From the NCBI GenBank assembly GCA_964520345.1, contig CAZFMY010000027.1, positions 1,589-65,588 of the forward strand: a stretch of 64,000 nucleotides of DNA, in the 5' to 3' direction. Source of the DNA: an uncultured Gemmatimonadaceae bacterium. Its GTDB lineage: Bacteria; Latescibacterota; UBA2968; UBA8231. A program made the translations under genes and the position numbers. The notes under the pieces are model-generated. The model searched no databases and had not been told where the DNA came from. It was given only the letters and a program-made list of their open reading frames with translations. The stretch's first letter is position 1, and each line of letters starts with the position of its first letter. Below, piece after piece: positions 4,283 to 64,000 of this stretch.

Positions 4283-4283
4283 G

Positions 4284-8219: not shown

Positions 8220-8220
8220 G

Positions 8221-38124: not shown

Positions 38125-38128
38125 GGCT

Positions 38129-44269: not shown

Positions 44270-44998
44270 ATGGAAGTGGCGTTAGAAAGAGTTCCTCTTC
44301 AGATCGAAGCGCTCTTCCTCTGTACGGTATTGGTGGTGCTGGGGCTTTTTGTTCTGGCCGTTCGTTTCGCCGCCCAGAGTACGGGTCGGAAAGATGTCGG
44401 GTTGTGGACCGTTCGAGCTGCTTCGGGAGCGGCGATCTGGCTGGCGGCGACCGGTCTGCTGACCCTTACAGGTGTCCTGCGTGACTTCTCGCTGCCGCCC
44501 AATATTCTGGGACTCTTTCTGGTATCGCTCGCCCTGACCGCCTGCGTGGCCTTTTCGCGGGTGGGTACGGCGTTGGTGATAGGTATAGGACCGGTCGGGC
44601 TGATCGGGTTCCAACTCTTCCGCGTGCCGGTGGAGGTTTTCTTGCACGGGATGTATCAGGTGGGTCAGACACCGGTACAAATGACCTACACGGGGCTCAA
44701 TTTCGACATCTTTTCCGGCTTGACTGCGCCGGCGATGGCCTGGTTGGTCTGGCGCGGGCAGGTCGGTCGCTACAGCATCTGGTTGTGGAATGTGTTTGGC
44801 TTGACGCTCTTGCTCGCCATCGTTGCGATCGGAGTGTTCTCTATGCCGACGGAGTTCCGCGTTTTTACGGTCGAGCCGGCCAATACCTTCGTGGCCTATG
44901 TGCCCTATGTTTGGCTGCCGACGGTCTTGGTGCAGGCGGCGCTTTTGGGACACTTGCTGGTTTTCCGCTGGTTGTGGGCGAACCGAGTGAGAAAATGA
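44270..44998 (+). CDS. Polytopic membrane protein of unknown function (about 6 TM)
   Basis: 242 aa hydrophobic ORF with an AAGGAG SD sequence 7 nt upstream. No recognisable family. Confidence 0.5.
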   Translation: MEVALERVPLQIEALFLCTVLVVLGLFVLAVRFAAQSTGRKDVGLWTVRAASGAAIWLAATGLLTLTGVLRDFSLPPNILGLFLVSLALTACVAFSRVGTALVIGIGPVGLIGFQLFRVPVEVFLHGMYQVGQTPVQMTYTGLNFDIFSGLTAPAMAWLVWRGQVGRYSIWLWNVFGLTLLLAIVAIGVFSMPTEFRVFTVEPANTFVAYVPYVWLPTVLVQAALLGHLLVFRWLWANRVRK

Positions 44999-47392: not shown

Positions 47393-47426
47393 GATCTGAG
47401 CGGAAGCAGGTGCCATCGCTCAGATC
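47393..47426 (-). terminator. Hairpin overlapping the sulfatase stop codon; possible terminator
   Basis: 10-bp perfect inverted repeat gatctgagcg / cgctcagatc with a 14-nt loop. On the minus strand it is followed by GTTTTG, so the T-tract is weak. Confidence 0.35.
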
Positions 47427-49142: not shown

Positions 49143-49919
49143 ATGCGTTCAATCAAAAAAGTGGGTCTTACCGGTGCCAATGGCACGATCGGTCGGGTAT
49201 TGATGGAGGGGTTGGCCAACGAGTACGAGGTTATGGCTTTTACGCGGCGCGAGGTCGATTTTGCCTCGGCGATCGTCAATTTTGAAAATGCCGATGAGGT
49301 CGAGGGTTCGTTCGCGGGATTGGACGCGGTCATTCACCTGGCTGCCGACCCAAGTCCGCTGGCGCCGTGGGAGGCGGTGCGTGAGCACAATATCGAGGCG
49401 ATGTACCAGGTATTGGAGGAGTGCCGACGCGCCAGAGTCAGGCGTCTGGTCTTCGCCTCGACGAATCACACTCAGCATGGCAACACCATTCTCACGACGC
49501 CGGAGACCTTGGATCCAGAGAAGAAACTGAGGATGAAACTGGACGATCTGCCAAATCCCGATTCGCTCTACGCTGTATCCAAACTATTCGGTGAACATTT
49601 GGGTAAACTCTACAGTGAGCGCTTTAATCTCGAATTTGTCGGATTGAGGATCGGTTGGATCGTTGTCGAGAACGATCCAACCATTATGCGCGGTACTGCG
49701 GCCGAGGATTATCTGCGCGCGATGTTTTTGAGTCATAGGGACTGCATTGCGGCACACAAATGTGCCCTTGAGGTGGACACCCGTTATGCGCTGGCCTACG
49801 TGGTTAGCAATAACGGTCGTCGCGTTTTTGATCTGGAGGAGACGCGGGCCGTGCTCGGCTATGAGCCGCAGGACGATGCCGAGACGTATTTCGCTAGTCG
49901 ACTTGGGCTTGACCGCTGA
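49143..49919 (+). CDS. NAD-dependent epimerase/dehydratase-like SDR (uronate dehydrogenase-like size)
   Basis: 258 aa with GLTGANGTIGR, YAVSK (YxxxK), and an AAGGAG SD sequence. Confidence 0.75.
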   Translation: MRSIKKVGLTGANGTIGRVLMEGLANEYEVMAFTRREVDFASAIVNFENADEVEGSFAGLDAVIHLAADPSPLAPWEAVREHNIEAMYQVLEECRRARVRRLVFASTNHTQHGNTILTTPETLDPEKKLRMKLDDLPNPDSLYAVSKLFGEHLGKLYSERFNLEFVGLRIGWIVVENDPTIMRGTAAEDYLRAMFLSHRDCIAAHKCALEVDTRYALAYVVSNNGRRVFDLEETRAVLGYEPQDDAETYFASRLGLDR

Positions 49920-49945
49920 TCTCTTTGGCCCTTCATTTGCCCTTT

Positions 49946-51589
49946 ATGAAAGAGCGGCACCGCAAGGGCAAAAAGCAAGCAAAACCCCCAATCAGTTCTT
50001 CTACTGAGGGCACTCCGCTTGCTCGTTTTTACCACTATGCCGATGGCTCACGCGGACGTCTGATACTACCGGCTCTCGTCGCAATCTCGACGCTATTTCT
50101 CGGCATCTGGACTTTCGATCCCAAGCTTTCTTTGAGCGGCGATAACACCGAATTCATCATTCTGGCGCGCAGTTTGGCTCAGGGCGAGGGATTGGTGCAT
50201 ATCAACTCGCCCGATCCTCAACCGGCAACCAAGTATCCGTTCGGATTGCCGCTCCTGTTGGCACCACTAGCGTGGTTTTTTCCGGGTGATTGGGTGCCGA
50301 TGAAGGCCTGGGTGCTGGTGATTTTTTCATTGGGGATGGGGATCTTGTACCAGTTGGTCAAGGAGCGGGCGGGAGCTTTACCAGCCTTGGCGACGGTAGC
50401 GCTGAGTCTGACGGTGGGTAAGAGCTATCTCACCCACGGGCCAGACGATATCGTCTATGGTCCCCTGTTATTGCACTATGCGCACCAGGTGATGTCCGAG
50501 GCTCCCTATCTGACCTTTTCGCTTTTGGCCTTGTGGCTTATCGAACGAGGTGTCGGGCGCGAGGGGGTTAGGGACAACTGGTGGCTGATTGCTGGATTTG
50601 TTTGCACCATGTGGGCCTATTATATCCGCACCGTCGGTATTGCGCTGGTGGCGGCGGTGCTGGCGTACCTGCTTCTGCGTCGCGATTTTCGGCGTGGGTT
50701 GATGTTTGCAGTGGCGGCTTTTACCTGCTGGTTGCCCTGGACTCTGCGCAATAGAGCGGTGGGTGGCGACAGCGTCTATATAAAGCAGTTGTTTATGGTC
50801 AATCCCTACCATCCGGACCGCGGTCTGCTCGACTTCGGGGGTTTTGTCGAGCGCTTTTTCGCCCACGTCCAGCTCTACCTGACGCGGGAATTGCCCAATA
50901 CACTGGTACCCTATTTCACTGGCGCTGAAACGCTTTTGCACCCTGCTGCGCTCTTGCTGGTCGGCCTCGCGGTCGCTGCGACAACGCTCTGCGTCAAGCG
51001 CGGGGAAAATTTGCTGCTCTTGCTCTATGCCGGTTTCTTCATCGGGGTAGTGCTGCTCTGGCCCTGGCCGGGTGATCGTTTCCTGATGCCGATCGTGCCG
51101 ATATTGATCTTTCTGGCCGTATGGGTTGTATTGTGGGTCCGCGATAGAGTGGCGGTGCACAATGCGGGAGCTGGTCGTTTCTTGGTGTGGGGAATCTTCC
51201 TGGTGTTTTTTTCCGCTACGCTCGGTGGCGTCAAACGTCTGGCCGACTATAGCGAAGCCGATTATCCGCCCCAATGGAGCCGCTATTACCAGGCTGGCCA
51301 GTGGCTCAAAACCCATACGCCGGAAGATGCTATTGTGCTTTGTCGCAAGGGCTACTGGATGTCTGTAGTCTCGGGTCGGCGCTGCATCGGCTTCCCGTTC
51401 AAGGAGCCCCCAATAGTGCTCGAGCATATGGAGCGAGAAGCGGTCGACTATGTCGTGCTCGAGAGTTTGGGTTTTCCGCAGACCGTGCAGTATCTGGTCC
51501 CGACCGTCAATGCGTACCGGGACCGCTTCGAGGTTCAGTGGCAGGACCAGGCGCTGCCGACTTATGTCCTGCGGTTCTTGAGCAAATAG
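49946..51589 (+). CDS. GT-C fold (ArnT/PMT_2-like) polytopic glycosyltransferase
   Basis: Polytopic membrane protein with an acidic first-loop motif LSGDNTEFIILARSL, typical of GT39/GT83-like enzymes. An alternative TTG start lies at 49925. Confidence 0.65.
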   Translation: MKERHRKGKKQAKPPISSSTEGTPLARFYHYADGSRGRLILPALVAISTLFLGIWTFDPKLSLSGDNTEFIILARSLAQGEGLVHINSPDPQPATKYPFGLPLLLAPLAWFFPGDWVPMKAWVLVIFSLGMGILYQLVKERAGALPALATVALSLTVGKSYLTHGPDDIVYGPLLLHYAHQVMSEAPYLTFSLLALWLIERGVGREGVRDNWWLIAGFVCTMWAYYIRTVGIALVAAVLAYLLLRRDFRRGLMFAVAAFTCWLPWTLRNRAVGGDSVYIKQLFMVNPYHPDRGLLDFGGFVERFFAHVQLYLTRELPNTLVPYFTGAETLLHPAALLLVGLAVAATTLCVKRGENLLLLLYAGFFIGVVLLWPWPGDRFLMPIVPILIFLAVWVVLWVRDRVAVHNAGAGRFLVWGIFLVFFSATLGGVKRLADYSEADYPPQWSRYYQAGQWLKTHTPEDAIVLCRKGYWMSVVSGRRCIGFPFKEPPIVLEHMEREAVDYVVLESLGFPQTVQYLVPTVNAYRDRFEVQWQDQALPTYVLRFLSK

Positions 51590-51623
51590 ACCGCTTGCCT
51601 CTTCCAGCGTCCAGTATCTATAC

Positions 51624-53561
51624 TTGGGATGCCCTGAATTTTCCCTCCAGTTGCCGTCGGTGCCCGTGATTCGACATTCCTCGCTGCTTGTATTCTCCTC
51701 CTATCTGGTTGTTAGTCTCATCTTCACCTATCCGCTGGTGCTGCATTTGACGACCCACGTGCCCGGTGAGGTGGCGGGTGATGTGCCGGTCTATATCTGG
51801 AATCTGTGGTGGATGCAGCAGGCGTTATCGACGGGGATCTCGCCGCTCTTTTGCGATTATATTTTCGCTCCTTATGGTGTGTCGTTGGCTTTTCACGCTT
51901 TCGTTTTTCTCAAGGCCTTCGTCGCAATTCTCCTTCAGTATTTTTTCACCGCCTGGACTGCCTACAATATTCTGATCCTGGTGACCTTTGCGCTCTCTGG
52001 TTGGACAATGTTTCTGCTGGCGCGCCATCTCAGTGGCGATGCTCGGGCGGCGTGGCTGGCGGGGTTGGTCTACGCTTTCAGTCCCTATATGCTGACCCGC
52101 GGGACAGGCCATCTCAATTATCTCAGCGGCGAGTGGATGCCGCTCTATGCGCTCTGCCTGATCCGCCTTTTGCAAACGCGCGAGAAGCGTTGGGCTTGGG
52201 GCGGCGGACTCTGTCTATTGCTAACGGCGTACTGCGAATACTACTATCTTATCTACCTGACATTATTCACCGTTTTTTATCTGGGATGGCGATTTCGATG
52301 CGATCGGCAAGAGCTCTTGAACTCGACCTTTCTCATTCGTTTCGCACTGATGGGCGCTGGTGCTGTGGTGGGTTTTGCACCGATCCTGTGGGTGCTCTTT
52401 GGTACGGCGCAGAGCAGCTACATATATGGTGGGTGGGGGGCTTCGGCCAAACTGGGGGCGGATCTATTAGCTTTTTTCTCGCCCCCGCCGGGAAGCCTGC
52501 TCTACGGCGATATCAGCGCGGGGCTTTATGAGACGTTCTCTGGTGGAAATGCGGTAGAGGGCACGGTCTTCACTGGCTATGTCGTGCTCGGTTTGAGCGC
52601 AATCTGCATCTGGCGTTTGCGGGGCGATGAGTCGGTGCGGCTCTGGTTGTGGTTGACACTGGTGTTTTTCCTGCTTTCACTTGGGCCCTTGCTGCACGTT
52701 GGCGGAGACTTCGTCTTCGGGATCGGCCCTGTGCGATTCGTCGTGCCATTGCCCTATGTGGTCGTGCGCTATTTGCCGCTGATCAAGGGAGCTCGAGTGC
52801 CGGCGCGTTTCGATATTATGGTCGTTATGGGATTGGCGGTGCTCAGTGCCTACGGGGTGCGCTATTGGCTCGGTCGGGTTGAATACCCCGCACGTTGGAT
52901 AGCGGCAATTGTCCTTCTGGTTGCCTTGGAGTATCTTAGGATGCCCTATCCGGTCGCTGCGGTGGAAATCCCCGGTGCCTATCGGACCATTGCCGGTGAA
53001 AGCGGTGACCGAGTGGTGATGGACGTGCCCCTGGGTTGGCGTACTGGCTGGGGCAGTACCGGGCGCAGTCTCGACCACCAGCAGCTCTTTCAAATCGTTC
53101 ATGGCAAGCGTTTGCTCGGTGGCTTTGCCTCGCGTATTCCCGAAGACGAATTGCGGCGGATGGCCGCTCTGCCGGGCATTGGTCGGCTTCTGGATCTGCA
53201 GGAGCAACTGCCTGCAACTCCTGCGCCGACAGCGGCCCGCAGGCCCTTTATCAGGGCTCAGCTAACAGAGCTTTTAGATCACTTGCCTGTTTTTTTGCGC
53301 CAGCGGTTGATGCGCGAAGGTGCGGTGCGCGACTTCCTCGCCAATACCTCGGCCGAGCGGCGGATTGCAGAGCAGGCTCCGCGCTCGCGTTCCCTGCGCC
53401 AGTTGGTGGATGTGGTGGAGTTGGGATATGTCGTTGTGCATCCGCCCTATAGCGGGTACGCGCCGATTCGGCGCTATCTTGAAACGGGTTTGCCGCTGGA
53501 GAAGTTCTACGATCAAGGTGGTGTGATAGGCTATCGGATCGTCGATGGTATGGATCATTAG
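51624..53561 (+). CDS. YfhO/DUF6311-like polytopic membrane protein (putative GT-C transferase), start uncertain
   Basis: 645 aa. The N-terminus YPLVLHLTTHVPGE..GDVPVYIWNLWW resembles YfhO-type proteins. TTG 51624 or GTG 51666 start, neither with an SD sequence. Confidence 0.6.
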   Translation: MGCPEFSLQLPSVPVIRHSSLLVFSSYLVVSLIFTYPLVLHLTTHVPGEVAGDVPVYIWNLWWMQQALSTGISPLFCDYIFAPYGVSLAFHAFVFLKAFVAILLQYFFTAWTAYNILILVTFALSGWTMFLLARHLSGDARAAWLAGLVYAFSPYMLTRGTGHLNYLSGEWMPLYALCLIRLLQTREKRWAWGGGLCLLLTAYCEYYYLIYLTLFTVFYLGWRFRCDRQELLNSTFLIRFALMGAGAVVGFAPILWVLFGTAQSSYIYGGWGASAKLGADLLAFFSPPPGSLLYGDISAGLYETFSGGNAVEGTVFTGYVVLGLSAICIWRLRGDESVRLWLWLTLVFFLLSLGPLLHVGGDFVFGIGPVRFVVPLPYVVVRYLPLIKGARVPARFDIMVVMGLAVLSAYGVRYWLGRVEYPARWIAAIVLLVALEYLRMPYPVAAVEIPGAYRTIAGESGDRVVMDVPLGWRTGWGSTGRSLDHQQLFQIVHGKRLLGGFASRIPEDELRRMAALPGIGRLLDLQEQLPATPAPTAARRPFIRAQLTELLDHLPVFLRQRLMREGAVRDFLANTSAERRIAEQAPRSRSLRQLVDVVELGYVVVHPPYSGYAPIRRYLETGLPLEKFYDQGGVIGYRIVDGMDH

Positions 53562-53595
53562 GCAGATCAATCGGCATTAGAAAAGGCGGCAAATT

Positions 53596-54324
53596 TTGGA
53601 CTCGACAACGGGTGAGCTACCGACTCTCTTTATCGTTATTCCAGCGCTCAACGAGGAAGAGAATATCGGGCAGACACTCGAGTGCCTTGAGGACCAGGTC
53701 GACCTGCCCTGCGAAGTGATCGTGGTCGATGATCACTCGACCGACGCGACCGGGGAGGTGGTGCGCCGTTTTGCTGAGGAGCACTCCAATGTGCGCCTGG
53801 TGAAGAACGAGGGTCCGCGTGGCTTCAGCAATGCGTTGAAAGTGGGTTATGAAGCCGCTGGCTCCGGTGTGATCGTTACGATGATGGCCGATCTTTGCGA
53901 CGATCCGCAGACGTTGGCCCCGATGTACGAGAAGATTCTCGAGGGCTACGATGTGGTCTGTGGATCGCGTTATATGCCGGGGGGTGGCAAGCGCAACGAG
54001 GATAGCGAGGTCAAGGGTATGTTCTCCCGCTTTGTCGGGCTTTCGCTCCGTCGTTTGGTGGGCGTGCCGACCCACGACGCGACCAACGCCTTCAAGATGT
54101 ACCGCAGTGAGGTGATTAAGAATATCCCTATCGAGGAGGCGGGTTTCGCCTCTTCGATGGAGATTACGGTGAAGGCTTTTTTACGCGGGGCGAAGATTGC
54201 AGAAGTACCGACGGTATGGCGGGGGCGCACGGCGGGTAAGTCTAAGTTCAGCATATTGAAAGGTGGGAAGGACTACCTGCGTTGGTATGTGTGGGCAGTT
54301 CTACTGCGCAAGCACAAATTCTGA
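53596..54324 (+). CDS. GT2 polyprenyl-phosphate sugar synthase (Dpm1/GtrB/ArnC-like)
   Basis: 242 aa, TTG start. Blocks: IVIPALNEEENI, VIVVDDHSTDAT, MMADLCDDP. No C-terminal TM helices. Confidence 0.8.
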   Translation: MDSTTGELPTLFIVIPALNEEENIGQTLECLEDQVDLPCEVIVVDDHSTDATGEVVRRFAEEHSNVRLVKNEGPRGFSNALKVGYEAAGSGVIVTMMADLCDDPQTLAPMYEKILEGYDVVCGSRYMPGGGKRNEDSEVKGMFSRFVGLSLRRLVGVPTHDATNAFKMYRSEVIKNIPIEEAGFASSMEITVKAFLRGAKIAEVPTVWRGRTAGKSKFSILKGGKDYLRWYVWAVLLRKHKF

Positions 54325-54476
54325 AAAAAGACAGAGCGGTTCCGCACTTGTGCTGACTCCGCGGATTTGTGGTACGTGCTCTCGCTGTGTTCGTGTTCGG
54401 TGGCACACTCGCTAGCCGGTTCGTCCATGACGGACGCAGGTTTCTATAGCTAATGGTCAAGGAGTTGCCGGAAATT

Positions 54477-55544
54477 CTAAGCTTCCTCTCGTTCCCTGGT
54501 CGTCTCGACCATCTCCTCTAATGTCCGCTCTATATCGTATGAGTATTCCCACTCGGGGTAGTGCGCCTGGAATTTGCGCACGTCGCTGATCCACCATATA
54601 TGGTCGCCGACTCGGGCCTCATCCGCAAGGGTATAGTCGAGTTCTCTGCCCGAGAGGCGTTGTGCGATCTCGATGGCTTCGAGCATTGAGATATTGGCAT
54701 GGCGTCCGCCGCCGATATTGTAGACTTCTCCTGCGCGGGGATTCTGGTAGAAGTGCCAGAAGGCGGAAACCAGGTCGTGGCTGTGGATATTGTCGCGGAC
54801 CTGTTTGCCCTGGTAGCCGAAGATGGTATACGACCGGCCGCTGACCACGCATTTGACCAGATAGCCCAAAAAACCGTGTAGTTCGGCAGCCGAATGCGCT
54901 GGCCCGGTGAGGCAGCCGCCGCGGAAGGCGGCGGTGTTGAGGTCGAAGTAGCGACCGTATTCCTGCACCAGTATGTCGCCGGCGACCTTGGAAGCACCAA
55001 AGAGGCTGTGTTTGCACTGGTCGATGCGCAAACTCTCGTCGATGCCGAACTCGTAATAGGGATGCATCTGGTCGATCTCCCAGCGAGTCTCGTGTTCTAC
55101 CAGAGGCAATTCGTTGGGGGCGTCGCCATAGACCTTATTGGTGCTGGTAAAGATGAAGGCTGCGTCGGGGCAGAAACGGCGCACGGCCTCGAGGAGGTTG
55201 AGCGTGCCATTGGCATTGACGGTGAAATCGGTAATCGGCTCACGCGCGGCCCAATCGTGAGAGGGCTGGGCCGCGGTGTGGATGACGAGTGCGATCTGCT
55301 TTCCGTACTCCGCAAAGAGTGCGTCGATGGCTCGATTGTCGCGGATATCGATATCGCGGTGTTGGTACTTGGGCAGCCCTGCCTCGAGTTGCTCGCGATT
55401 CCAGGTTGTGGACCCGTCTGCGCCGAAGAAGTACTGACGCATATTATTGTCGATCCCGACAATGTCGAAGCCCTGCTGGTGGAAGAAGCGGGTCGCTTCG
55501 CTGCCTATGAGACCGGCCGAGCCAGTTATAAGGACGACGCTCAA
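54477..55544 (-). CDS. RfbE (CDP-paratose 2-epimerase)-like extended SDR with FxxxK in place of YxxxK
   Basis: 355 aa, TTG start after AAAGAGG. Blocks: [24 protein letters not shown]. The catalytic box reads HSLFGASK. I checked the TTT codon at 54999..55001 on the DNA. Confidence 0.8.
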
Positions 55545-55556
55545 CGGATTACCTCT

Positions 55557-56624
55557 TTAGGTGAAGACGGTGCGGACCAGTTCGTGGTTTTCTGCCAGCC
55601 AGGCATGAATGTCGAAGACGATGTTCCGCACGGATTTTTGTGGTGTCCAACCGAAGGTTGTATTTGTCTTGGTGTTATCGGTGACATAGTAGGGAATGTC
55701 CACTGCTCGAGTCTCCGCGACCGTACCCACTTCGATGGTTCGCCCCGTGGCTTCAGCACAGAGCTGGGTATACTCCACCAGCGAAGTCGAACCCGCGAGT
55801 CCTCCTCCCGCGTTGTAGACCTCGCCGGTCCAGCGCTCGGGTTGATCTTTTTGCTTCTGCAGCAGTTCGAAAAGGTCGTCGGGGTGGAGCAGATCGCGCA
55901 CCTGTTTGCCCTGGCCGCCGAATCCCATATAGCTGAGACTTAATTCGAAGTAGTGATGGGCGACCCACAGGGTGTAGACACCCTGATCGACCTTGCCCCA
56001 CTGGCCCGGCCCGGCGATGACGCCGCAGCGGTTGATCAAGGCCTTCATACCGTAGGTGGCGCAGTATTCCTGGACGAAGAGTTCGGAAGCCAACTTGGTT
56101 GCGCCGTAGAGTGAGCGGTGGCGAGAGGTGTCGAAAGTTTCACCGAACCCCGCTGCGCTAAGGCCTGTGGGCAGGGGGTGGTCTAAGTCGATGCTGAAAC
56201 GGGTTTCTTCCTCGTGCAGGGGTAGCTCGCGCAAAGCGGGTAGTGCATAAACTCGCGATGTAGAGAGGAAGAGAAAGGCGGCAGCGCGTCTGCGCGCCCA
56301 CTCAAGGCAGTTGAGCGTGCCCTTGAGATTGGTGTCGATGAGATAGTCCGGTGTACCGTCGGAGCCGGCGTGGGCGGAGGGCTCGGCCGAGGCATCGATG
56401 AGCAAGTCGAAGTCGCCCTCCAGTGCTTCGAGATCTGCCGCATTGCGCACGTCGCCATGGGTGAATTCGATATTCAGTTCTTTGAAATCCGCCAGATTGA
56501 GTTCCGATCCCCGGCGTTTGAGGTTGTCGAAGGCGACAATGCGGAGTTCGGGATCGTGGCGGCGGTAGCGGCGCGCCAGGCTCGAGCCGACGAATCCGGC
56601 GCCGCCGGTGATGCATAGGCTCAT
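55557..56624 (-). CDS. RfbE (CDP-paratose 2-epimerase)-like extended SDR, canonical YxxxK
   Basis: 355 aa. Blocks: ITGGAGFVGS, RSLYGATK, GKQVRD. The ATG overlaps the upstream AKR stop (ATGA). Confidence 0.8.
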   Translation of the reverse strand: MSLCITGGAGFVGSSLARRYRRHDPELRIVAFDNLKRRGSELNLADFKELNIEFTHGDVRNAADLEALEGDFDLLIDASAEPSAHAGSDGTPDYLIDTNLKGTLNCLEWARRRAAAFLFLSTSRVYALPALRELPLHEEETRFSIDLDHPLPTGLSAAGFGETFDTSRHRSLYGATKLASELFVQEYCATYGMKALINRCGVIAGPGQWGKVDQGVYTLWVAHHYFELSLSYMGFGGQGKQVRDLLHPDDLFELLQKQKDQPERWTGEVYNAGGGLAGSTSLVEYTQLCAEATGRTIEVGTVAETRAVDIPYYVTDNTKTNTTFGWTPQKSVRNIVFDIHAWLAENHELVRTVFT

Positions 56625-57607
56625 GGCAGCGGAGCGTCTGCGCGGATCAGGTTTTCGTTGCGGAGTTCGTCCCAGAACTCAGTGGGAATGTCCTCTTTGA
56701 GCAAATTGAAATTCTCACTGACGCGATCCGGTTGACGCGTACCCGGGATGATACAGGTGATGGCCGGGTGGGCAAAGACGAACTGAGAGGCTGCTGCTTT
56801 GAGATCGACCTGGTGGCGCAGGGCAGCTTCTTCGAGGCCTTTGGCCTTGGCCATGATCTCGGGCGGGGCTTCGCTGTAATTGTAGGTGGCTCCGGGTTGG
56901 GCACCTTTGGCGAGGATACCGCTGTTGTAGGTGCCGCCGGCCATGATGCCGATATTCTTTTCCACGCAGAGCGGTAGTAATTCGTCCAGTGAACTTTGGT
57001 CGAGCAGGCTGTAGCGTCCGGCGAGCAGGAAGCTGTCGAAGTCGCCTGCGCGAGCGAAGCGAGCGAGCATTTCCCATTGATTCATGCCAGCGCTAATAGC
57101 GCTGATGACGCCTTCGCTGCGCAGCCGTTCGAGCGCCGGGTAGGCGCCGGAAATGGCTTCCTCCCAGTGATCGTCCGGGTCGTGGATATGGAGAATATCG
57201 ATCCGATCGACGCCGAGGCGTTCGAGACTTTCCTCGAACGATCGGATAACGCCGTCGTAGCTGAAGTCGAAGACGGGTTTGAAAGGTGGAGGATTGTCGA
57301 AAATCCCTTGTTCGGTATTTTCGCCATCGGTCGGAACCAGGATACGACCGACCTTGGAAGCCAGCACATAGTTTTCGCGGGGTACTCCTTTCAGAGCGAG
57401 GCCCAGGCGATTTTCGCTTTTGCCCGCTCCGTAGAGCGGTGCGGTATCTAATAGGTTGAGGCCGAGGTCAAAGGCGCGGTGGACCACCTGGACGGCCTGC
57501 TCGTCGGGTATGTCGCCATAGAGACCACCCAGGGCGGCGCAGCCTAATCCGAGGCGGGTGACTTCGAGCCCGCTAGTGCCGAGGACGACTTTTTCGAGTG
57601 GATCCAT
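56621..57607 (-). CDS. Aldo/keto reductase
   Basis: 328 aa. Blocks: LGLGCAALGG, LLDTAPLYG, and a C-terminal IPGTRQPDRV. Confidence 0.85.
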   Translation of the reverse strand: MDPLEKVVLGTSGLEVTRLGLGCAALGGLYGDIPDEQAVQVVHRAFDLGLNLLDTAPLYGAGKSENRLGLALKGVPRENYVLASKVGRILVPTDGENTEQGIFDNPPPFKPVFDFSYDGVIRSFEESLERLGVDRIDILHIHDPDDHWEEAISGAYPALERLRSEGVISAISAGMNQWEMLARFARAGDFDSFLLAGRYSLLDQSSLDELLPLCVEKNIGIMAGGTYNSGILAKGAQPGATYNYSEAPPEIMAKAKGLEEAALRHQVDLKAAASQFVFAHPAITCIIPGTRQPDRVSENFNLLKEDIPTEFWDELRNENLIRADAPLP

Positions 57608-57612
57608 GTTTT

Positions 57613-57634
57613 TCCGATACTCCTCCGATACTCC
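57613..57634. repeat. Tandem 11-bp duplication TCCGATACTCC x2 in the AKR 5' UTR
   Basis: Read directly. On the minus strand it gives GGAGTATCGGA GGAGTATCGGA AAAAC ATG, which duplicates an SD-like GGAG. Confidence 0.6.
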
Positions 57635-57710
57635 GTGAAGGGTGTTGAGAAAAGTGAATATAAGCTAAGTTTTAGGACGGAGAAAGCTTGTGCATTCACC
57701 GGCGGGATGC

Positions 57711-57739
57711 TTGACGCTATGAGCGGTATTACTTAGATT
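57711..57739 (+). promoter_or_regulatory. Candidate sigma70-type promoter (TTGACG-17-TAGATT)
   Basis: Hexamers read directly with a 17-nt spacer, 88 nt upstream of ATG 57827. Consensus match only. Confidence 0.3.
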
Positions 57740-57826
57740 AAATCGCCTTTTTTTAACAGGATCGGAAGCGGTTGAATTTAAAAGAGATGCGATTGTTTTT
57801 TGCACTCTTTGGCCGGGGTGGCGACG

Positions 57827-59347
57827 ATGAACTTACTGCTCTTAACATTGCTGATTGGATGCACCCCCGCAGAAGAGGTCCCGCGTTTGGTGGAGGTGGC
57901 AGATACTGCGCCGGACGCAAAGAGGTGGGTTTGGACCGATAGAGAGATGGGTTGGAGATCCTGGAGCCAGGATCTCTTTGAAGAGGCTGGACGTGAGGAT
58001 CGGCCTGTTTTGGTCTATTTGGCGGCCCCTGGGTGCGAGGGGCTGTTCCCGGCGCCGACTCCCGGATTGCGGCGATTGGTAGCGGATGGTTTTATCAGCA
58101 CAAGGGTCGATCCATTCAAACGCCCGGATATCGCAAATTATTACGATACCGGTGGTTGGCCCGCTCTGGCTATAGCGCTGCCGAATGGACGGATTTTCGC
58201 TAGAGCCGTCGATATTCCGCCGACCAATATCGAATCCTATCTCCGTCGATTGCGGCTGGCCTATGATGAACAGCGCGCAGTTCTCATTGATAAGGTCCAG
58301 CAGGCTGGGAAGGTGCAAGACGCGCGGATGCCCTTTGAAGTTGTGGCGGTCTACCGGGCATGTGCAGTGGCTTTCGACTCGCTGCACGGTGGTTTCGGTG
58401 GACCGGCCAAGTTTCTTGAAGCGTCGGTTTTGCGCTTTTTGCTGGCCTATGGCGAAGCGAAAGACGAAGAGCGGGCAATGCAGATGGCTCTGACGAGTCT
58501 GGACGCCGTGCTTGATTCGCCGCTTAGCGATGGTGGTGGTTTCCTGGCCTACTCGTACGCGCCGAACTGGCGCGCTCCTGCGGGCGAGATGGATGGCTTG
58601 GATCAGGCGGCGATGCTACACCTCTTGCTCGAAGCCGGTCAGCCCCGTTATACGGTGGCAGCCAGGGCTTTGCTCGACTTTGTCGAACGCGAGTTCTTTG
58701 ATCCAATCGAGGGCGTGTTTTGGGGACGCCAGGTAGCTCTGCCTCCTTATGAGGATGAGGCTCCTGGTCGGAGAGATAGCTCCAGGGGGTGGTGGACCGA
58801 CCCGACGCTCTACGCCGATCGTCAGGCGGCTCTGATCCGGGCCTGTCTCGCGGCGGCAACTGTGCTCGAGGACGATCGCGCTGCCCGCTTGGCGACTCGA
58901 GCGGGCGACGCATTGATTGCGCGCTGTATTGACGATCGTGGTGGAGTGCGACACGTTTGTGGGGTCGGAGAGGAGAGCATCTCAGGGCTTCTGGTCGACC
59001 AGGCTTTGGTGGCGCTGGCGCTTCGTGATCTGCTCGAGTGGAGCGGGGAAGCGCGCTTTGGGATTGCAGCTAAGCGGGTCGTGCGTTTTATGGAGCAGGA
59101 ACTCGGAGGTCGAACCGCTTTTTATAATCGCGCCGTCGGTCCGTTGCCGCGGTTTTTCGCGCACTGCGATGATGATCGACCCGCTGGAAATGCTCTGGCT
59201 CTTGAATTCTATGGAGAGCAAGGGGATGCCGCGCAATCGGCCAGGCTGATGGAAGGACTTCACCTGGTAACGGAGCCGGACCGGGCGTATAGCTCTTGGG
59301 CGCGTGGCGTTTTGCGCTATGGCGCGATGGCGAAAACATCTCTATGA
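57827..59347 (+). CDS. YyaL/SSP411 (DUF255 thioredoxin-like + alpha/alpha toroid)-like lipoprotein with a degenerate redox motif
   Basis: Start at ATG 57827 gives MNLLLLTLLIGC with a lipobox L-I-G-C. DUF255-like blocks: RPVLVYL....RVDPFKRPDI, GGFGGPAKF. The CHWC box is replaced by CEGL. Confidence 0.7.
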   Translation: MNLLLLTLLIGCTPAEEVPRLVEVADTAPDAKRWVWTDREMGWRSWSQDLFEEAGREDRPVLVYLAAPGCEGLFPAPTPGLRRLVADGFISTRVDPFKRPDIANYYDTGGWPALAIALPNGRIFARAVDIPPTNIESYLRRLRLAYDEQRAVLIDKVQQAGKVQDARMPFEVVAVYRACAVAFDSLHGGFGGPAKFLEASVLRFLLAYGEAKDEERAMQMALTSLDAVLDSPLSDGGGFLAYSYAPNWRAPAGEMDGLDQAAMLHLLLEAGQPRYTVAARALLDFVEREFFDPIEGVFWGRQVALPPYEDEAPGRRDSSRGWWTDPTLYADRQAALIRACLAAATVLEDDRAARLATRAGDALIARCIDDRGGVRHVCGVGEESISGLLVDQALVALALRDLLEWSGEARFGIAAKRVVRFMEQELGGRTAFYNRAVGPLPRFFAHCDDDRPAGNALALEFYGEQGDAAQSARLMEGLHLVTEPDRAYSSWARGVLRYGAMAKTSL

Positions 59348-60243
59348 AGATACTGGTGACAGGAGCGAATGGTTTTTTGGGCCGCAGTCTGCTCACCCTG
59401 GATGGAGAGGTGGAATGGATCGGCTGCGGGCGCCGGAGTGCTGTGGGCGGGATTCCCTATCGCCAAGCTGAATTGGCCGACCGGGACTCAATGGCTGCGC
59501 TGGTTGCCGAAGTGGAACCGGATTGGGTGATTAATACGGCAGCAATGACCAATGTCGATCGATGCGAAAAAGATGCTCGGGAGGCGCGGCAAGCCAATGT
59601 CGAGATTGTCGAGACCCTGGCGGAGGTCTGTGGTGTCACAGGCGTCGGTCTGGTGCAGATTTCGACCGATTATGTCTTCGACGGCAAGGAGGGGCCCTAT
59701 GCCGAAGGAGATAGGACGACACCTTTGTCTCGCTATGGCCAACTCAAACTGGAAAGCGAGCGCGTGCTGGATAAATTGGACCGGACTATGGTGGTGCGGA
59801 CCTTGTGGCTTTACGGCTACGTCCCCCAGGCGGGGTCCAATTTCATCACCTGGTTGCTGAATGCGCTTCCCTGCGGTGAGCCGTTGCGGGTTTTTGCCGA
59901 CCAATGGGGTAATCCGACCTATGCTAATGACCTGGCCCGCGCGCTTGTAGCACTCTGTCGTCAAGAGGCTCGGGGGCTTTTCCACATGGGAGGTACTACC
60001 TTTATGACGCGTTACGAGTTGGCACTCGAAGTGGCGCGTTTCTTTGATCTCGACGGCGAGTTGATTCAACCGGTGCCGACTCAGGAGGCCGGACTTTCGG
60101 CTGTGCGGCCTCTGCGCTCGGGGCTTTGCACCGATGCTTTGGAAGCAGAACTGGGTTATCGGCCGCTGAGTTTTGCCGAGGGGTTGCAGGACCTGGCCAG
60201 CGATCCTCGTTTCCGCCGCGACTTTCCCCGGTTTGCCCTCTAA
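59344..60243 (+). CDS. RmlD/RfbD-like (dTDP-4-dehydrorhamnose reductase family) SDR
   Basis: MKILVTGANGFLG, STDYVFDG and YGQLK (YxxxK). The ATG overlaps the upstream stop (ATGA). Confidence 0.8.
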   Translation: MKILVTGANGFLGRSLLTLDGEVEWIGCGRRSAVGGIPYRQAELADRDSMAALVAEVEPDWVINTAAMTNVDRCEKDAREARQANVEIVETLAEVCGVTGVGLVQISTDYVFDGKEGPYAEGDRTTPLSRYGQLKLESERVLDKLDRTMVVRTLWLYGYVPQAGSNFITWLLNALPCGEPLRVFADQWGNPTYANDLARALVALCRQEARGLFHMGGTTFMTRYELALEVARFFDLDGELIQPVPTQEAGLSAVRPLRSGLCTDALEAELGYRPLSFAEGLQDLASDPRFRRDFPRFAL

Positions 60244-60253
60244 AGAGCCACTC

Positions 60254-60973
60254 ATGGACCCAATGCGGATTTCGCTGATCACACCGACCTACAACGAGCG
60301 AGAGAACCTGACGCTCTTGGCCGAGGAGATCTTTGCCATTGTCGGCGCCGAACCCGATATAGATTTGGAACTGATCGTCGTCGATGACGGATCGCCTGAT
60401 GGCACCGGAGAGGTGGCGGAGGAACTGAAAGCCAGCTATCCCCTGCAAGTGGTGCACCGGGCCGCCAAGCTAGGTCTGGGGTCGGCGGTGATGGCGGGTT
60501 TCGCCCTCTCCGACCGGCCTTATCTCGGCGTGATCGACGCCGATTTGAGTCACGATCCAGCGATATTACCTGAATTGGTCCATAGTCTGCGCGAATACGA
60601 TATCGCCATGGGTAGTCGCTTTGGGGAAACCAGTCGGGTCGAAAAATGGGCCTGGCATCGCAAGTTGACCTCGCAGGTTGGCGTGGGTTCGGCCCGGCTG
60701 CTGACCGGGGCCGAAGATCCGCTCTCTGGTTATTTCTGCCTGCGTCGCGAAGTCCTGGAGGGCTTCGAGTTGACTTCTTCCGGCTACAAGATCCTGCTTG
60801 AGATTCTGGTAAAGGGACGCTACGAAAGGCATCGTTCAGTGCCCTTTGTCTTCCGCAATCGCCAGTTCAGCTCTAGCAAGCTCAATCTACGCGAATACCT
60901 GCTTTTCACTAAACAGATCCTCTACTTCAGTGGCTACAAGCTTTTGCGCCGATCCAAAGGCGGTGGGTCATGA
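60254..60973 (+). CDS. Polyprenol-monophosphate mannose/sugar synthase (Dpm1/Ppm1-like GT2)
   Basis: ISLITPTYNERENL, LIVVDDGSPDGT, KLGLGSAVMAGF and IDADLSHDP, the classical DPM1 family blocks. Confidence 0.85.
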   Translation: MDPMRISLITPTYNERENLTLLAEEIFAIVGAEPDIDLELIVVDDGSPDGTGEVAEELKASYPLQVVHRAAKLGLGSAVMAGFALSDRPYLGVIDADLSHDPAILPELVHSLREYDIAMGSRFGETSRVEKWAWHRKLTSQVGVGSARLLTGAEDPLSGYFCLRREVLEGFELTSSGYKILLEILVKGRYERHRSVPFVFRNRQFSSSKLNLREYLLFTKQILYFSGYKLLRRSKGGGS

Positions 60974-62652
60974 GACTGAGCGTCGTTTTCCTCAGCTATA
61001 ATACGCGTGACTTGACCAAGCAGGCTCTGAGCTCAGTGCTCGATGCAGCCGAATGCATGGAAGTGGAGGTCCTCGTTGTTGACAACGCCTCTGTAGATGG
61101 CAGCGCCGATATGGTAGAGGAAGAATTTCCCCAGGTGAAACTAATTCGCAACGAGGACAATGTCGGTTTTGCGGCTGGCAACAATGTGGCTCTGCGGCAG
61201 GTGGTTGGAGAATATGTGCTCTTGATCAATACCGATACTATTGTGCGGCGGGATGCGTTGCTCACGATGGTGGATTTTTTGGACGCACACCCGGAGGCCG
61301 GAGCTTGCGGGTGCAAAATTCTCGATCCCGATGGCACCTTGCAACTCGACAGCCGCCGAGGTTTCCCAACACCAGTGGCCGCTTTCTGCAAGATGTCGGG
61401 ACTGAGTCGTCTCTTTCCCAATCACCCGGTTATTTCTCGCTATTATATGACCTATCTAGACCCCGAGCAGATGGCGGAAGTCGAAGTCCTTTCCGGGTCT
61501 TGTATGATGGTGCGCAAAACGGTGATAGACCAGGTCGGATTGTTAGATGAAGACTACTTCATGTACGGTGAGGATATTGATTGGTGCTACCGGATCTACC
61601 AGGCCGGCTGGAAAATATACTATGTACCGGATACGGAGATTATTCACTTCCGTGGCGAGAGTGGCAAAGGGGCGCCGCTGAGGATTCTTTATCGCAAGAG
61701 TAAAGCGATGTCGATCTTTGTCAATAAGCATATGGCGCGGCGCTTTCGCTTTTTTCCGCTCTGGCTGCTGCAGGTGGGCATTGCTCTGCACGGAGGTTTT
61801 CGATTCTTCGTCAAGACTGGCCGCACCCTGTCCCTGCCTCTGGTCGATGCGGCGCTGGTGCTCAGCGGATTGAAGTTGGCCCTGGCTGTCCGCTATCACC
61901 AGGATCTTGTGCCTTTTATCTACCCCATCGAGCGGATTGGCAATCTTTTCGGCCTTGATGCCCAGCCGACTCGCTGGCTGACTCCGCCTCCCTATTCGGA
62001 TTTGCAGTGGATCGTAGTCTATGGTGTCGCGACTCTGGTCTGGTTAGTGGCATTCTATGTGTCGGGCCTGTACGATCGTCGTCGCTATTCGGTGCCTTGG
62101 TCGGTGGTGGGAGTTGCACTAGGCTCGGCTTTTATCGTGACTCTGGCGTTCTTCTTCAAGGACTACAACTTTTCACGGCTGGCGACTGCTGCGGCTTTTG
62201 TCTGTAATGCGGTGCTGATTGCCAGCTGGCGTTTTGCCGCGCGTTGGGTATTGCACCAGCGCGGTCGTTCAGGACGATTGCGCACTTTGTTGGTGGGCAA
62301 CGATCAAGCAGCAGTGGACTTTATCGAGTATATCCAACGGACGGGCAGTTCCATCTATGATTTGATCGGCGTGGTCGGCCAGCGACCCGAAGACCAGGAT
62401 CGTCCGCTGGCCGGTCGACCTGTGATCGGTCTGGTCGGTGAATTTGAGGCCCTGATCCGAGATTACGCGATCGACCAGGTGGTGTTTACGCCGAGCACAA
62501 TGTCCGTGCTCTTGGAGCAGATGGGGCAGTCTTGGGATGCGCAGGATCTACGGATCAGCATGGTTCCGATCTCATTTGCGAAGATGGTTGCAAATCGGAG
62601 TGCCAACGAGACCGAACAGCTGCCTCTGGTCAGGATCGGGGTGGGTAGATGA
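60970..62652 (+). CDS. Fusion: N-terminal GT2 glycosyltransferase and WbaP-type N-terminal module (TM helices + CoA_binding_3-like domain) without the phosphoglycosyltransferase domain
   Basis: GT2 blocks: LSVVFLSYNT, LVVDNASVDGS, NVGFAAGNN, LLINTDT. These are followed by about 4 TM helices and RTLLVGNDQAAVDFIEY...DLIGVVG...GRPVIGLVGEFEALIRDYAIDQVVF. The protein ends at LPLVRIGVGR, where WbaP-type enzymes begin their catalytic domain. Confidence 0.7.
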   Translation: MRLSVVFLSYNTRDLTKQALSSVLDAAECMEVEVLVVDNASVDGSADMVEEEFPQVKLIRNEDNVGFAAGNNVALRQVVGEYVLLINTDTIVRRDALLTMVDFLDAHPEAGACGCKILDPDGTLQLDSRRGFPTPVAAFCKMSGLSRLFPNHPVISRYYMTYLDPEQMAEVEVLSGSCMMVRKTVIDQVGLLDEDYFMYGEDIDWCYRIYQAGWKIYYVPDTEIIHFRGESGKGAPLRILYRKSKAMSIFVNKHMARRFRFFPLWLLQVGIALHGGFRFFVKTGRTLSLPLVDAALVLSGLKLALAVRYHQDLVPFIYPIERIGNLFGLDAQPTRWLTPPPYSDLQWIVVYGVATLVWLVAFYVSGLYDRRRYSVPWSVVGVALGSAFIVTLAFFFKDYNFSRLATAAAFVCNAVLIASWRFAARWVLHQRGRSGRLRTLLVGNDQAAVDFIEYIQRTGSSIYDLIGVVGQRPEDQDRPLAGRPVIGLVGEFEALIRDYAIDQVVFTPSTMSVLLEQMGQSWDAQDLRISMVPISFAKMVANRSANETEQLPLVRIGVGR

Positions 62653-64000
62653 GCGGTGTCGGTCGAGTCGGGACACTGTTTTTATGCGTCCTCTGCGTCA
62701 TCTGGGTACTAAAAGCTGGTACCGCACCTGCGCGGGAATCAGGTTTGCAATTGGTGCTGGAAGTACGCGACAATATACATCGAGAGTATGTCGACGAACT
62801 CGACAGTATGCGCATCATCGATGCGGGGCTCGATGGTCTGGTCGCGGGACTGGATGCGGGCGAAAATCTCTACCGCAGCCCAAGGGACCTCGGTGCTGAA
62901 CGAGTAGCGTTGGATGACCGTCGCCAGGTCGATCTGCTGCACGAGGCATTGGAGAAAGTGCAGGTGCAGTATCTAGAATCGGTTCCGTCCGATTCGCTGG
63001 CTCGAGATCTGGTTCGGGGAATGTTGACAGCTCTGGATCCGCACTCGAGTTATTTGGAGGCTGCCGAGTACGCAGAGATGGTCGAGACTTACCGCGGCGA
63101 TTTCGAGGGTATCGGTATCTACTTCGAAGTCCGGCAGGGCCGGCTCCTGGTTATTGCGCCGATCGTTGGTTCGCCCTCTTACGGCAAATTGCGGGCTGGT
63201 GACCATATCGTCGAGATCGAGGGGGTGCCCACTGACGGGATCACGACCGAGCAGGTGATGGAGAAGTTGAGAGGACCTCGTGGTTCGGAGGTACGGGTGG
63301 GCGTCCATCGCCAGGGCCGGGATGCGCTTCTCGAATTTGAAATTCGCCGCGACCGAATCGAGTTGAAAAGCGTACCTTACCGCTTTATGCTTGCAGAGGG
63401 CACGGGCTATGTGCGGATCGTGCGCTTTGCCGAGACGACTGGCGAGGAATTGGGTCAGGCTCTGGATTTTTTGCACCGAGAGGGAATGGAGCGGTTGCTG
63501 CTCGATTTGCGCGATAATGGTGGCGGACTTCTGGAACAGGCAGTAGAGGTAGCGGACTATTTTGTCGACGCCGGATCGCTGGTTGTCTACACCGAAGGGC
63601 GCGAGGCCGATTCAAGGCACGAGTATCGGGCTCGCCGTCCGCTGCGCGACCCGATGGCGTTGGTGGTATTGATCGATCACGGTAGTGCTTCGGCTTCCGA
63701 GATCGTCGCCGGCGCAGTGCAGGATCTCGACCTGGGGTTGGTTGCGGGTCAGACCAGCTTCGGCAAGGGATTGGTCCAGGGGCAGTTTCCGCTCAGGAAC
63801 AACGGCGGACTGCTGCTCTTGACGGTGGCTCGTTACTATACGCCTCTTGGTCGACTGATACAGCGACCCTATTCCGGCGATATCCAGGCCTATATCCAGG
63901 CGGGGATCGACGATGTGGATCCCAACAGCATTGATAGCCTACGGGTTCGCAAGGAAATCTTTTACACCGCTTCGGGTCGTTCAGTTTATGGCGGTGGTGG
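62649..64000 (+). CDS. S41 family C-terminal processing peptidase (partial, runs off the window; not in the supplied ORF track)
   Basis: My own translation from ATG 62649 (ATGA overlap with the upstream stop) is open to the window end. It starts MSGVGRVGTLFLCVLCVIWVL (TM anchor). A PDZ region follows (GIGIYFEV..GSPSYGKLRAGDHIVEIEG), then LLLDLRDNGGG, catalytic GSASASEI and TSFGKGLVQ. Confidence 0.85.
   Translation, partial: MSGVGRVGTLFLCVLCVIWVLKAGTAPARESGLQLVLEVRDNIHREYVDELDSMRIIDAGLDGLVAGLDAGENLYRSPRDLGAERVALDDRRQVDLLHEALEKVQVQYLESVPSDSLARDLVRGMLTALDPHSSYLEAAEYAEMVETYRGDFEGIGIYFEVRQGRLLVIAPIVGSPSYGKLRAGDHIVEIEGVPTDGITTEQVMEKLRGPRGSEVRVGVHRQGRDALLEFEIRRDRIELKSVPYRFMLAEGTGYVRIVRFAETTGEELGQALDFLHREGMERLLLDLRDNGGGLLEQAVEVADYFVDAGSLVVYTEGREADSRHEYRARRPLRDPMALVVLIDHGSASASEIVAGAVQDLDLGLVAGQTSFGKGLVQGQFPLRNNGGLLLLTVARYYTPLGRLIQRPYSGDIQAYIQAGIDDVDPNSIDSLRVRKEIFYTASGRSVYGGG

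Follow-up and report, generated by a model that had tools for sequence, protein, structure and literature searches.

A twelve-gene locus at positions 49143-64000 of the 64-kb stretch of DNA analysed here (the window), from a marine Latescibacterota genome, appears to encode a system that charges a membrane lipid carrier with sugars and passes these to a cell-envelope acceptor outside the cytoplasm, by means of a core and an optional branch. We judge this reading to be a little better than even. It is indicated most strongly by two features: two synthase-like GT2 glycosyltransferases (g10 and g4) are matched with two polytopic glycosyltransferases of the GT-C type (g2 and g3), and g4 occurs only where g3 does. 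The twelve open reading frames (ORFs) of the locus are denoted g1 to g12 (Table 1). An original prediction, made from the sequence alone, had arranged them in three operons. The ORF table and translations place all twelve at or within a few codons of the positions it gave, and almost all of its family calls were borne out by comparison with Pfam, NCBIfam and the PDB. Close homologues come from Candidatus Latescibacterota, some of them from metagenome-assembled genomes with the older name Gemmatimonadetes.

Conservation of the locus

The proteins of the window were compared by tblastn with 33 genome loci and further contigs. About 25 species-level genomes of Latescibacterota share a block consisting of g2, the minus-strand g7 and the divergent run g8-g9-g10-g11; g2 is 68-75% identical in these. 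The full g2-g11 order and orientation is retained in L004 and L033, where g2 is 56% identical, and the full arrangement is found again in L034, L036 and L037, with g2 at 45%, g3 at about 60% and g8 at about 38%; the core is also kept in L045, with g2 at 42%. The region had been described as a single island whose genes should be co-conserved in relatives if they do not abut by chance. The neighbourhood is indeed conserved, but the locus consists of a constant core (g2, g7 and g8-g11) and a variable cassette (g3-g6), the latter lacking in about 20 of the species genomes examined.

The content of the cassette varies in several ways. L027 and L031 have only g5-g6 between g2 and g7, while in L007, L014, L017 and L024 (about 13.7-16.7 kb) g4 is replaced, and g3 precedes genes for a methyltransferase-like protein and for a secreted protein of ~700 amino acids. 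The 282-residue methyltransferase-like protein and/or the ~700-residue secreted protein is also encoded between g2/g3 and g7 in L010, L022, L023 and L027, at the place taken by g4-g6 in the window, and this slot behaves as a hotspot of variable content. In L046 g3 is replaced by another polytopic protein with only 26% identity to it, and a gene for fucose isomerase stands between g7 and g8. In none of the loci examined was g4 present without g3.

The divergent operon contains ATGA overlaps at three of its four junctions (g8/g9, g10/g11 and g11/g12), as had been predicted, and these suggest translational coupling inside g8-g11. There is a 4-nt overlap at the g7/g6 junction, and the gap between g1 and g2 is only 26 nt. 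Scans of the sequence for promoters and terminators gave nothing over background.

The genes at the two ends of the locus were predicted to be operon members, and within the window they are indeed adjacent to the others. The gene g1, which encodes an extended short-chain dehydrogenase/reductase (SDR), is however absent in most relatives, occurring at or near g2 only in the clade of the window and in L045. Its product matches Epimerase in Pfam (7.8e-21) and, over its full length, the NCBIfam model for Azf-like glucose-6-phosphate dehydrogenase at 171 bits, short of the cut-off of 400, and it may belong with the sugar-catabolism genes of the window. As the orthologue in the distant L045, at 64% identity, lies directly upstream of g2, we do not exclude g1 outright and regard its membership as uncertain. 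At the other end g12 encodes an S41 protease (Peptidase_S41 4.7e-44; TIGR00225 259 bits against a cut-off of 218.6). We rejected it as an operon member: it follows g11 only in the clade of the window and elsewhere genes for an FtsX-type permease and an ABC ATPase come directly after g11, with no protease between. On contigs with an identical g11 protein (L038-L043) the full 585-residue protease is followed by the FtsX-type permease, the ABC ATPase, TauE and trp genes. It may therefore go with FtsX/ABC rather than with the glycosylation genes and probably lies outside the system.

Upstream of g2 other genomes have PPK2/TMEM164, or PPK2 together with genes for an extracytoplasmic function (ECF) sigma factor and a zf-HC2 anti-sigma factor. 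In L003, L005, L006, L034, L036, L037 and L046 the ECF pair immediately precedes g2 and has the same orientation; no copy of it was found anywhere in the window. Such a pair would fit an envelope function.

The polytopic proteins g2 and g3

Both polytopic proteins were predicted to be GT-C enzymes, and the two cases are supported in different ways. For g3 the evidence is structural. A model made by AlphaFold2 from a 52-sequence alignment has a mean predicted local distance difference test score (pLDDT) of 92.5 and a predicted template modelling score (pTM) of 0.93. When this model was compared with the PDB by Foldseek, all 25 hits at E <= 1e-3 were GT-C enzymes, with TM-scores of 0.39-0.52; the matches comprise STT3, PglB, AglB, AftD, DPY19 and ArnT, and transporters appear only at E > 0.05. 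On the basis of the model g3 is thus assigned the GT-C fold. In Pfam g3 itself gives a weak match to DUF2079 (24 bits, under the cut-off), and its homologues match DUF2079, PTPS_related, PMT_2 and, in one case, YfhO, with precomputed matches to DUF6311 as well. No papers on DUF6311, nor on DUF2079 together with 'glycosyltransferase', were found in the full-text literature. In one metagenome contig (L038, 833-2592) g3 is called as two ORFs of 222 and 380 residues against a single one of 631-633 residues elsewhere. The g4 and g6-g11 proteins of this contig are identical to those of the window, and the split is either a frameshift variant in the population or an assembly error.

Orthology leads us to place g2, as a divergent member, with the PMT_2-type GT-C enzymes: its orthologues pass the PMT_2 threshold, to which its topology and the acidic residues of its first outer loop are added. 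Among its full-length homologues 25 of 44 match PMT_2 and five match PMT, and two full-length orthologues from syntenic loci, P0080 at 28.9 bits and P0107 at 32.6 bits, exceed the PMT_2 gathering cut-off of 26.1. The N-terminal part of the protein is polytopic and is followed by a soluble C-terminal domain of roughly 100 residues; in size the protein is similar to ArnT. In the loop after the first transmembrane (TM) helix Asp58 is invariant, and Asp66 and Glu69 are conserved in 90% or more of the sequences; in g3 Asp53 of the first loop is near-invariant, with conservation of 90% or more. Both proteins therefore have the conserved acidic residues in the first extracytoplasmic loop that mark GT-C enzymes. 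Profile comparison with hhalign gave 17% probability between g2 and g3, and 86% over 99 columns between g2 and one of the proteins of the window that combine a PMT_2-like domain with TPR repeats, a result that is supportive only. No MIR or other protein-binding domain was detected in g2 by Pfam.

The synthase-like proteins g4 and g10

The two GT2 proteins, predicted to be Dpm1-like, both group with polyprenyl-phosphate-sugar synthases as judged by their sequences, g10 closely and g4 more distantly. Residues 3-219 of g10 match the dolichyl-phosphate-mannose synthase (DPMS) of Pyrococcus (PDB 5mlz) at 1.3e-50 and 175 bits, and its DADLSHDP motif is kept in all orthologues, so that g10 combines closeness to a characterised synthase with the DxD motif. 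The resemblance of g4 is partial. It matches Glycos_transf_2 in Pfam at 3.5e-31 and its top PDB matches are to the Pyrococcus DPMS (5mlz, 5e-22) and ArnC (3e-11), with MAD at residues 96-98 replacing the usual DAD (DxD) motif in nine of nine orthologues checked. The NCBIfam equivalog scores of g4 and g10 are all under the cut-offs.

g11, a GT2 domain on a module without a catalytic phosphoglycosyltransferase domain

The product of g11 was expected to be a fusion of a GT2 with the N-terminal part of WbaP. Pfam finds Glycos_transf_2 and CoA_binding_3, together with TM helices, and does not find Bac_transf (PF02397), the catalytic domain of monotopic phosphoglycosyltransferases (PGTs), without which g11 cannot act as a PGT. 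Residues 348-556 align to positions 30-245 of the 445-position model TIGR03025 (exopolysaccharide PGT), which corresponds to the bundle of four TM helices (4TMH) and PF13727. The rhamnosyltransferase subfamily TIGR01556 is the second-best model for the GT2 domain (65.7 bits), a score that fits the presence of the RmlD gene (g9) two genes upstream.

An ordinary homologue search with g11 gave only near relatives, 74% or more identical; more remote ones were obtained by an unindexed search of 1.8 billion representatives. The relatives at 35-42% identity are mostly 650-760 residues long, and in six of the seven scanned a Bac_transf domain is added. The g11 protein ends at the very boundary where Bac_transf begins in these relatives, and so do its Latescibacterota orthologues, of which there are more than 100 among the matches listed, mostly of 557-561 residues. 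The constant length argues that the PGT-less form is a stable architecture and no pseudogene. Dimerisation and the binding of uridine nucleotides have been reported for the 4TMH/PF13727 module of WbaP, and the module is reused in PglF-like dehydratases, though its role is still debated (PMC10942596).

The nucleotide-sugar enzymes and accompanying proteins

Two SDRs of the cassette, g5 and g6, were described as RfbE-like, and the best solved relative of both is CDP-tyvelose 2-epimerase. They are full-length relatives of this enzyme (E 1e-31 to 1e-37), g5 matching PDB 1orr at 1.7e-37 and g6 matching 9rl0 at 2.4e-35. Neither has the complete TyvE set of the catalytic Thr, Tyr and Lys together with TNK. 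In g5 a Phe stands at the catalytic Tyr of YxxxK (SLFGASK), in 11 of 11 orthologues checked, while TNK is kept; in g6 YxxxK is kept and TSR replaces the TNK segment. These changes are found in every orthologue in which the motif is covered, down to 59-71% identity. The Asn of TNK (N125) is reported to be essential in TaTyvE (PMC13098431). The losses in g5 and g6 complement each other, which may indicate that the two form a heteromer or that their chemistry differs.

The predicted RmlD-like reductase g9 scores 229.7 bits against TIGR01214, barely above the cut-off of 224.05, and matches RmlD_sub_bind at 6.3e-72; its substrate assignment as RmlD is probable. The aldo-keto reductase g7 (Aldo_ket_red, 3.3e-51) is encoded between g2 and g8 in almost every related locus, with 69-86% identity. 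The predicted lipoprotein g8 has the lipobox MNLLLLTLLIGC (LLIGC). Its N-terminus scores 23.7 bits with Thioredox_DsbH against a cut-off of 27 and matches PDB 3ira at 4.5e-6, and PF03190 is on record for its orthologues in L001 and L046. In distant relatives g8 is 34-43% identical, against 69-79% for g4, g7 and g10.

Parts that were not found in the window

The original prediction had stressed the expected parts that are missing. We scanned for them by running Pfam on ORFs of at least 200 residues, taken as likely genes, and by screening small ORFs for hydropathy. In the window this detected neither GtrA nor Wzx/Wzy, and no ABC-2 exporter, Bac_transf domain, sugar nucleotidyltransferase or genuine 4,6-dehydratase; the FtsX-type permease and ABC ATPase just beyond its end are not of the ABC-2 type. 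A small multi-TM ORF or a member of the GtrA/GtcA or ArnE/F families was detected neither in the window nor in the syntenic loci, and the three-component Gtr/Csb set is incomplete there. ArnA, ArnB and ArnD, which define the Arn pathway, were also not found in the window, and nor were the genes for an initiating PGT, Wzx/Wzy, Wzm/Wzt and nucleotide-sugar synthesis that define O-antigen and capsule loci. The statement that this is no textbook O-antigen, capsule or Arn locus therefore stands. The argument from missing parts itself carries little weight, because only 64 kb, about 1% of a 5-7 Mb genome, is visible and because flippase and nucleotide-sugar genes are frequently unlinked in known systems.

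A possible mechanism

A mechanism consistent with these results would have g10 produce, on the cytoplasmic side of the membrane, polyprenyl-phosphate-mannose or its counterpart with a similar hexose. Its product would be flipped by a protein encoded outside the locus, and g2 would then transfer the sugar to an acceptor on the periplasmic side. RmlD (g9) would complete dTDP-L-rhamnose, and g11, held at the membrane by its 4TMH/PF13727 module, would extend on the cytoplasmic side a lipid-linked or membrane-bound glycan that was started by a PGT encoded elsewhere. The periplasmic lipoprotein g8 and the aldo-keto reductase g7 accompany this core. In the optional branch g4, with its atypical MAD, would feed g3, the second and very different GT-C enzyme, while a nucleotide sugar, C2-epimerised or changed in another way, would come from g5 and g6. 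What is observed is which genes are present, their folds and families, and that they are co-conserved; the donor sugars, the pairings of g10 with g2 and of g4 with g3, the acceptor and, as the original prediction had proposed, the use of two different lipid-linked sugars are what we infer from them.

Several results weigh against this mechanism. The assignment of g2 is indirect: the protein itself has no Pfam match even at E <= 10, and is thus under the gathering threshold of PMT_2 (PF13231); its single-sequence AlphaFold model, made without an alignment, has a pLDDT of 45 and gives no structural support; and hhalign gave 0.6% probability between its profile and ArnT of E. coli. Profile searches of the PDB sequences with the alignments of g2 and g3 returned no GT-C enzyme, only chance matches at E > 0.1. 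Tandem triplets of g2 paralogues, about 60% identical, stand in unrelated contexts in other Latescibacterota (L002, 6565-11623; L030, 8254-12569), from which we conclude that the family has expanded within the phylum. In L015 the g2 orthologue is detached from g7-g11, and many genomes have g2 and g10 without g3-g6. In the optional branch the DxD motif of g4 is without its first Asp, and g5 has no catalytic Tyr. No flippase gene was found in the window by the Pfam and hydropathy scans, and the data on the locus identify neither the donor sugar nor the acceptor.

Alternative explanations

The most serious alternative, which we consider possible though unlikely, is that the genes owe their proximity to inherited synteny and are not parts of one pathway. 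The proteins g2 and g3 would then be two of many independent GT-C enzymes, and g10 a housekeeping polyprenyl-phosphate-mannose synthase serving all those of the genome; g9 and g11 would act in a separate rhamnose-glycan pathway, and g5-g7 (and g1) in sugar metabolism tied to the surrounding catabolic genes. Gene order is also conserved in the unrelated flanks, which include a sulfatase, PPK2, FtsX/ABC, TauE and trp genes, trpE among them. The signal thus comes in part from the inherited structure of the chromosome, and synteny alone is no proof that the three operons make one pathway; as support for a joint function the co-conservation is suggestive. The window contains at least four genes of the GT-C type, including two tandem genes, 40 kb away, for large polytopic PMT_2-like proteins with TPR repeats, and many GT-C enzymes of the genome could share one supply of lipid-phosphate-mannose. 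The g2 paralogue arrays also speak for this explanation, as do the unrelated insertions taken up by the slot between g2 and g7 (methyltransferase-like, ~700-residue secreted and Tricorn/PD40 proteins, fucose isomerase). A metagenome scan for distant relatives of g3 outside the phylum gave 80 loci, 41 of them of at least 5 kb, and only two of these 41 have a g4/g10-like GT2 within 7 kb of the DUF6311-family gene. GT2 adjacency is thus no general trait of that family, which counts also against the mechanism proposed above, although polyprenyl-phosphate-sugar synthases are often shared and unlinked, and low adjacency is then not unusual. Inherited synteny does not easily account for ten genes in three units that keep their order and orientation with g2 at 42-56% identity while the flanks on the g1/ECF side differ, nor for g4 occurring only together with g3, and chance would hardly explain why two GT2 synthases are matched with two GT-C enzymes.

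A second alternative, protein O-glycosylation of the Ppm1/Pmt type, seems improbable. Here g2 (and g3) would use the product of g10 to mannosylate secreted or lipid-anchored proteins, for example the exported sulfatases, hydrolases or the lipoprotein g8. The g2 orthologues do match PMT and PMT_2, Pfam families named for protein O-mannosyltransferases, g10 is DPMS-like, a gene for a fast-evolving lipoprotein is always in the operon and the region is rich in exported polysaccharide-degrading enzymes. PMT_2 also includes enzymes that modify lipid A and glycans, such as ArnT, and g2 has no protein-binding domain of the kind searched for in Pfam. RmlD and the rhamnosyltransferase-like g11 would be left unexplained.

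Least probable by our estimate is a stress-induced modification of lipid A or the lipopolysaccharide (LPS) core in the manner of Arn, with the ECF factor turning on g2-g4, the SDRs modifying a sugar nucleotide, the GT2 loading undecaprenyl phosphate and g2 transferring the sugar to LPS: the size and layout of g2, the ECF pair directly upstream of it in several lineages, the match of g4 to ArnC and the adjacent SDR genes would suit it, but equivalents of ArnA, ArnB, ArnD and ArnE/F were not found, g2 and ArnT do not align significantly, the window has no ECF pair and g10 is far nearer to DPMS than to ArnC.

The transfer of lipid-linked sugars by a core and an optional branch remains the reading we prefer. 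An elaborated form of it, which we hold to be doubtful when taken as a whole, would make the locus a Latescibacterota-specific glycosylation machine that is new to the literature. The g11 protein would descend from a bifunctional GT2-PGT that has lost its catalytic PGT domain, and would serve as a dimeric membrane scaffold that rhamnosylates a lipid-linked acceptor and anchors the soluble g10, to which it is coupled through the ATGA overlap. Together g11 and g10 would feed the divergent PMT_2-type g2. The optional branch would be formed by g3, from the uncharacterised GT-C family DUF6311/DUF2079, with its sugar provided by a heteromer of two half-degenerate proteins, g5 without the catalytic Tyr and g6 without the essential Asn.

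The rest of the window

The region from 1757 to 48925 is dominated by genes of polysaccharide and sugar-acid catabolism (Table 1). Scans of the window detected neither a tRNA gene nor an Rfam family. Each of the 32 two-kb bins has a positive GC skew (0.04-0.24) and the plus strand carries most of the genes, so that the whole window seems to belong to a single replichore.

Table 1. Genes of the glycosylation locus and other features of the 64-kb window. Core and cassette refer to the constant and variable parts of the locus; aa, amino acids.
Feature	Position	Strand	Description	Part of locus
g1	49143..49919	+	258-aa extended SDR, Azf/uronate-dehydrogenase-like	uncertain
g2	49946..51589	+	547-aa polytopic protein, putative PMT_2-type GT-C glycosyltransferase	core
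g3	51624 (or 51660)..53561	+	~633-645-aa predicted GT-C-fold glycosyltransferase, DUF6311/DUF2079 group	variable cassette
g4	53596..54324	+	242-aa soluble GT2, polyprenyl-phosphate-sugar-synthase-like	variable cassette
g5	54477..55544	-	355-aa CDP-tyvelose-2-epimerase-like SDR	variable cassette
g6	55557..56624	-	355-aa CDP-tyvelose-2-epimerase-like SDR	variable cassette
g7	56621..57607	-	328-aa aldo-keto reductase; leads the minus-strand operon	core
g8	57827..59347 (probable ATG)	+	~506-aa predicted lipoprotein, thioredoxin-like DUF255 N-terminal domain; fast-evolving	core
g9	59344..60243	+	RmlD, probable dTDP-4-dehydrorhamnose reductase	core
g10	60254..60973	+	239-aa soluble GT2, near relative of dolichyl-phosphate-mannose synthase	core
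g11	60970..62652	+	560-aa GT2 (rhamnosyltransferase-like) with TM-helix/PF13727 module, no catalytic PGT domain	core
g12	62649..64000	+	S41 C-terminal processing protease with PDZ domain, cut by the window end	probably outside
PMT_2-like membrane domain + TPR repeats	5790-8219	+	809 aa; PMT_2 21.3 bits, under cut-off	
PMT_2-like membrane domain + TPR repeats	8134-10782	+	882 aa; PMT_2 31.6 bits, over cut-off	
Sulfatase	4227-5783			
Sulfatase	45051-46445			
Sulfatase	47420-48925			
Further catabolic-region genes	within 1757-48925		PcRGLX/GH127-like; two UxuA-like; gluconolactonase-like (SGL); GlcNAc 2-epimerase	
Further catabolic-region genes	within 1757-48925		SSF symporter; GFO/IDH/MocA oxidoreductases; Amidohydro_2 protein	
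ORF	114-1487	-	457 aa; no Pfam match	
ORF	27016-28209	+	397 aa; no Pfam match	
ORF	33470-34828	-	452-aa polytopic; no Pfam match; NCBIfam Nramp-family metal transporter 97.8 bits (cut-off 50)	
ORF	38066-40468	+	800 aa; no Pfam match	
ORF	44270-44998	+	242-aa polytopic; no Pfam match	

Relation to known systems and significance

The combination of a GT2 lipid-phosphate-sugar synthase, a flippase and a GT-C transferase is established for CsbB/GtcA/YfhO and related systems (PMC5836110, PMC7389260, PMC8035078), and the operating logic proposed here is therefore already known. The locus resembles CsbB/GtcA/YfhO, GtrB/GtrA/Gtr and GacI/GacJ/GacK/GacL in its cytoplasmic GT2 and polytopic GT-C proteins (PMC5836110, PMC7389260, PMC8035078); the relatives of g3 include one with a YfhO match, and g4 and g10 group with the GtrB, ArnC and DPMS types. 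It differs from these systems in that no GtrA/GtcA-type flippase gene is found in the window, in having two GT2/GT-C pairs in one locus, in the additional RmlD, PGT-less GT2 fusion, tyvelose-epimerase-like SDRs, aldo-keto reductase and lipoprotein, and in its host, a diderm of an uncultured phylum. GtrB and ArnC have C-terminal TM helices, whereas g4 and g10 are short, soluble proteins without them. The likeness to Ppm1/Pmt and to the eukaryotic and archaeal DPM1 (5mlz) lies in the DPMS match and DAD of g10 and in the PMT/PMT_2 matches of g2 orthologues; unlike Pmt, g2 has no MIR detectable by Pfam and is itself under all Pfam thresholds. With ArnC/ArnT the locus shares the GT2 and GT-C logic, nearby SDRs, stress-type regulators upstream in relatives and the size of g2, but ArnA/B/D/E/F are absent from the window, g2 gives no significant alignment with ArnT and g10 is DPMS-like.

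In its TM bundle and PF13727 g11 resembles the WbaP-type Lg-PGT and Bi-PGT enzymes (PMC10942596), and its remote relatives have the order GT2, 4TMH, PF13727 and Bac_transf. It differs from them in that the module is joined to a GT2 alone, without Bac_transf, which recalls the reuse of the module in PglF-like dehydratases (PMC10942596). The full-length relationship of g5 and g6 to RfbE/TyvE (1orr, 9rl0; PMC7851689, PMC13098431) is likewise accompanied by a difference, the conserved Phe for the catalytic Tyr in g5 and TSR for TNK in g6.

What is unusual is thus the composition, from known types of part and with no new principle: a single locus combines two GT-C enzymes that differ strongly from each other, synthases of the DPMS type that are soluble, a GT2-4TMH-PF13727 protein without a PGT domain and two residue-deficient tyvelose-epimerase-like proteins. 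Current understanding is not overturned. A confident model is now available for g3, from an uncharacterised GT-C family (DUF6311/DUF2079), g11 provides a stable, natural PGT-less version of the 4TMH/PF13727 module, and g5 and g6 show complementary losses of catalytic residues; all three cases are tractable targets.

To our knowledge the Latescibacterota have no cultured representative, and we know of nothing reported on their envelope glycans. The locus is among the few multi-gene blocks that are kept across the phylum, and its variable cassette is of the kind that usually marks the diversification of surface structures.

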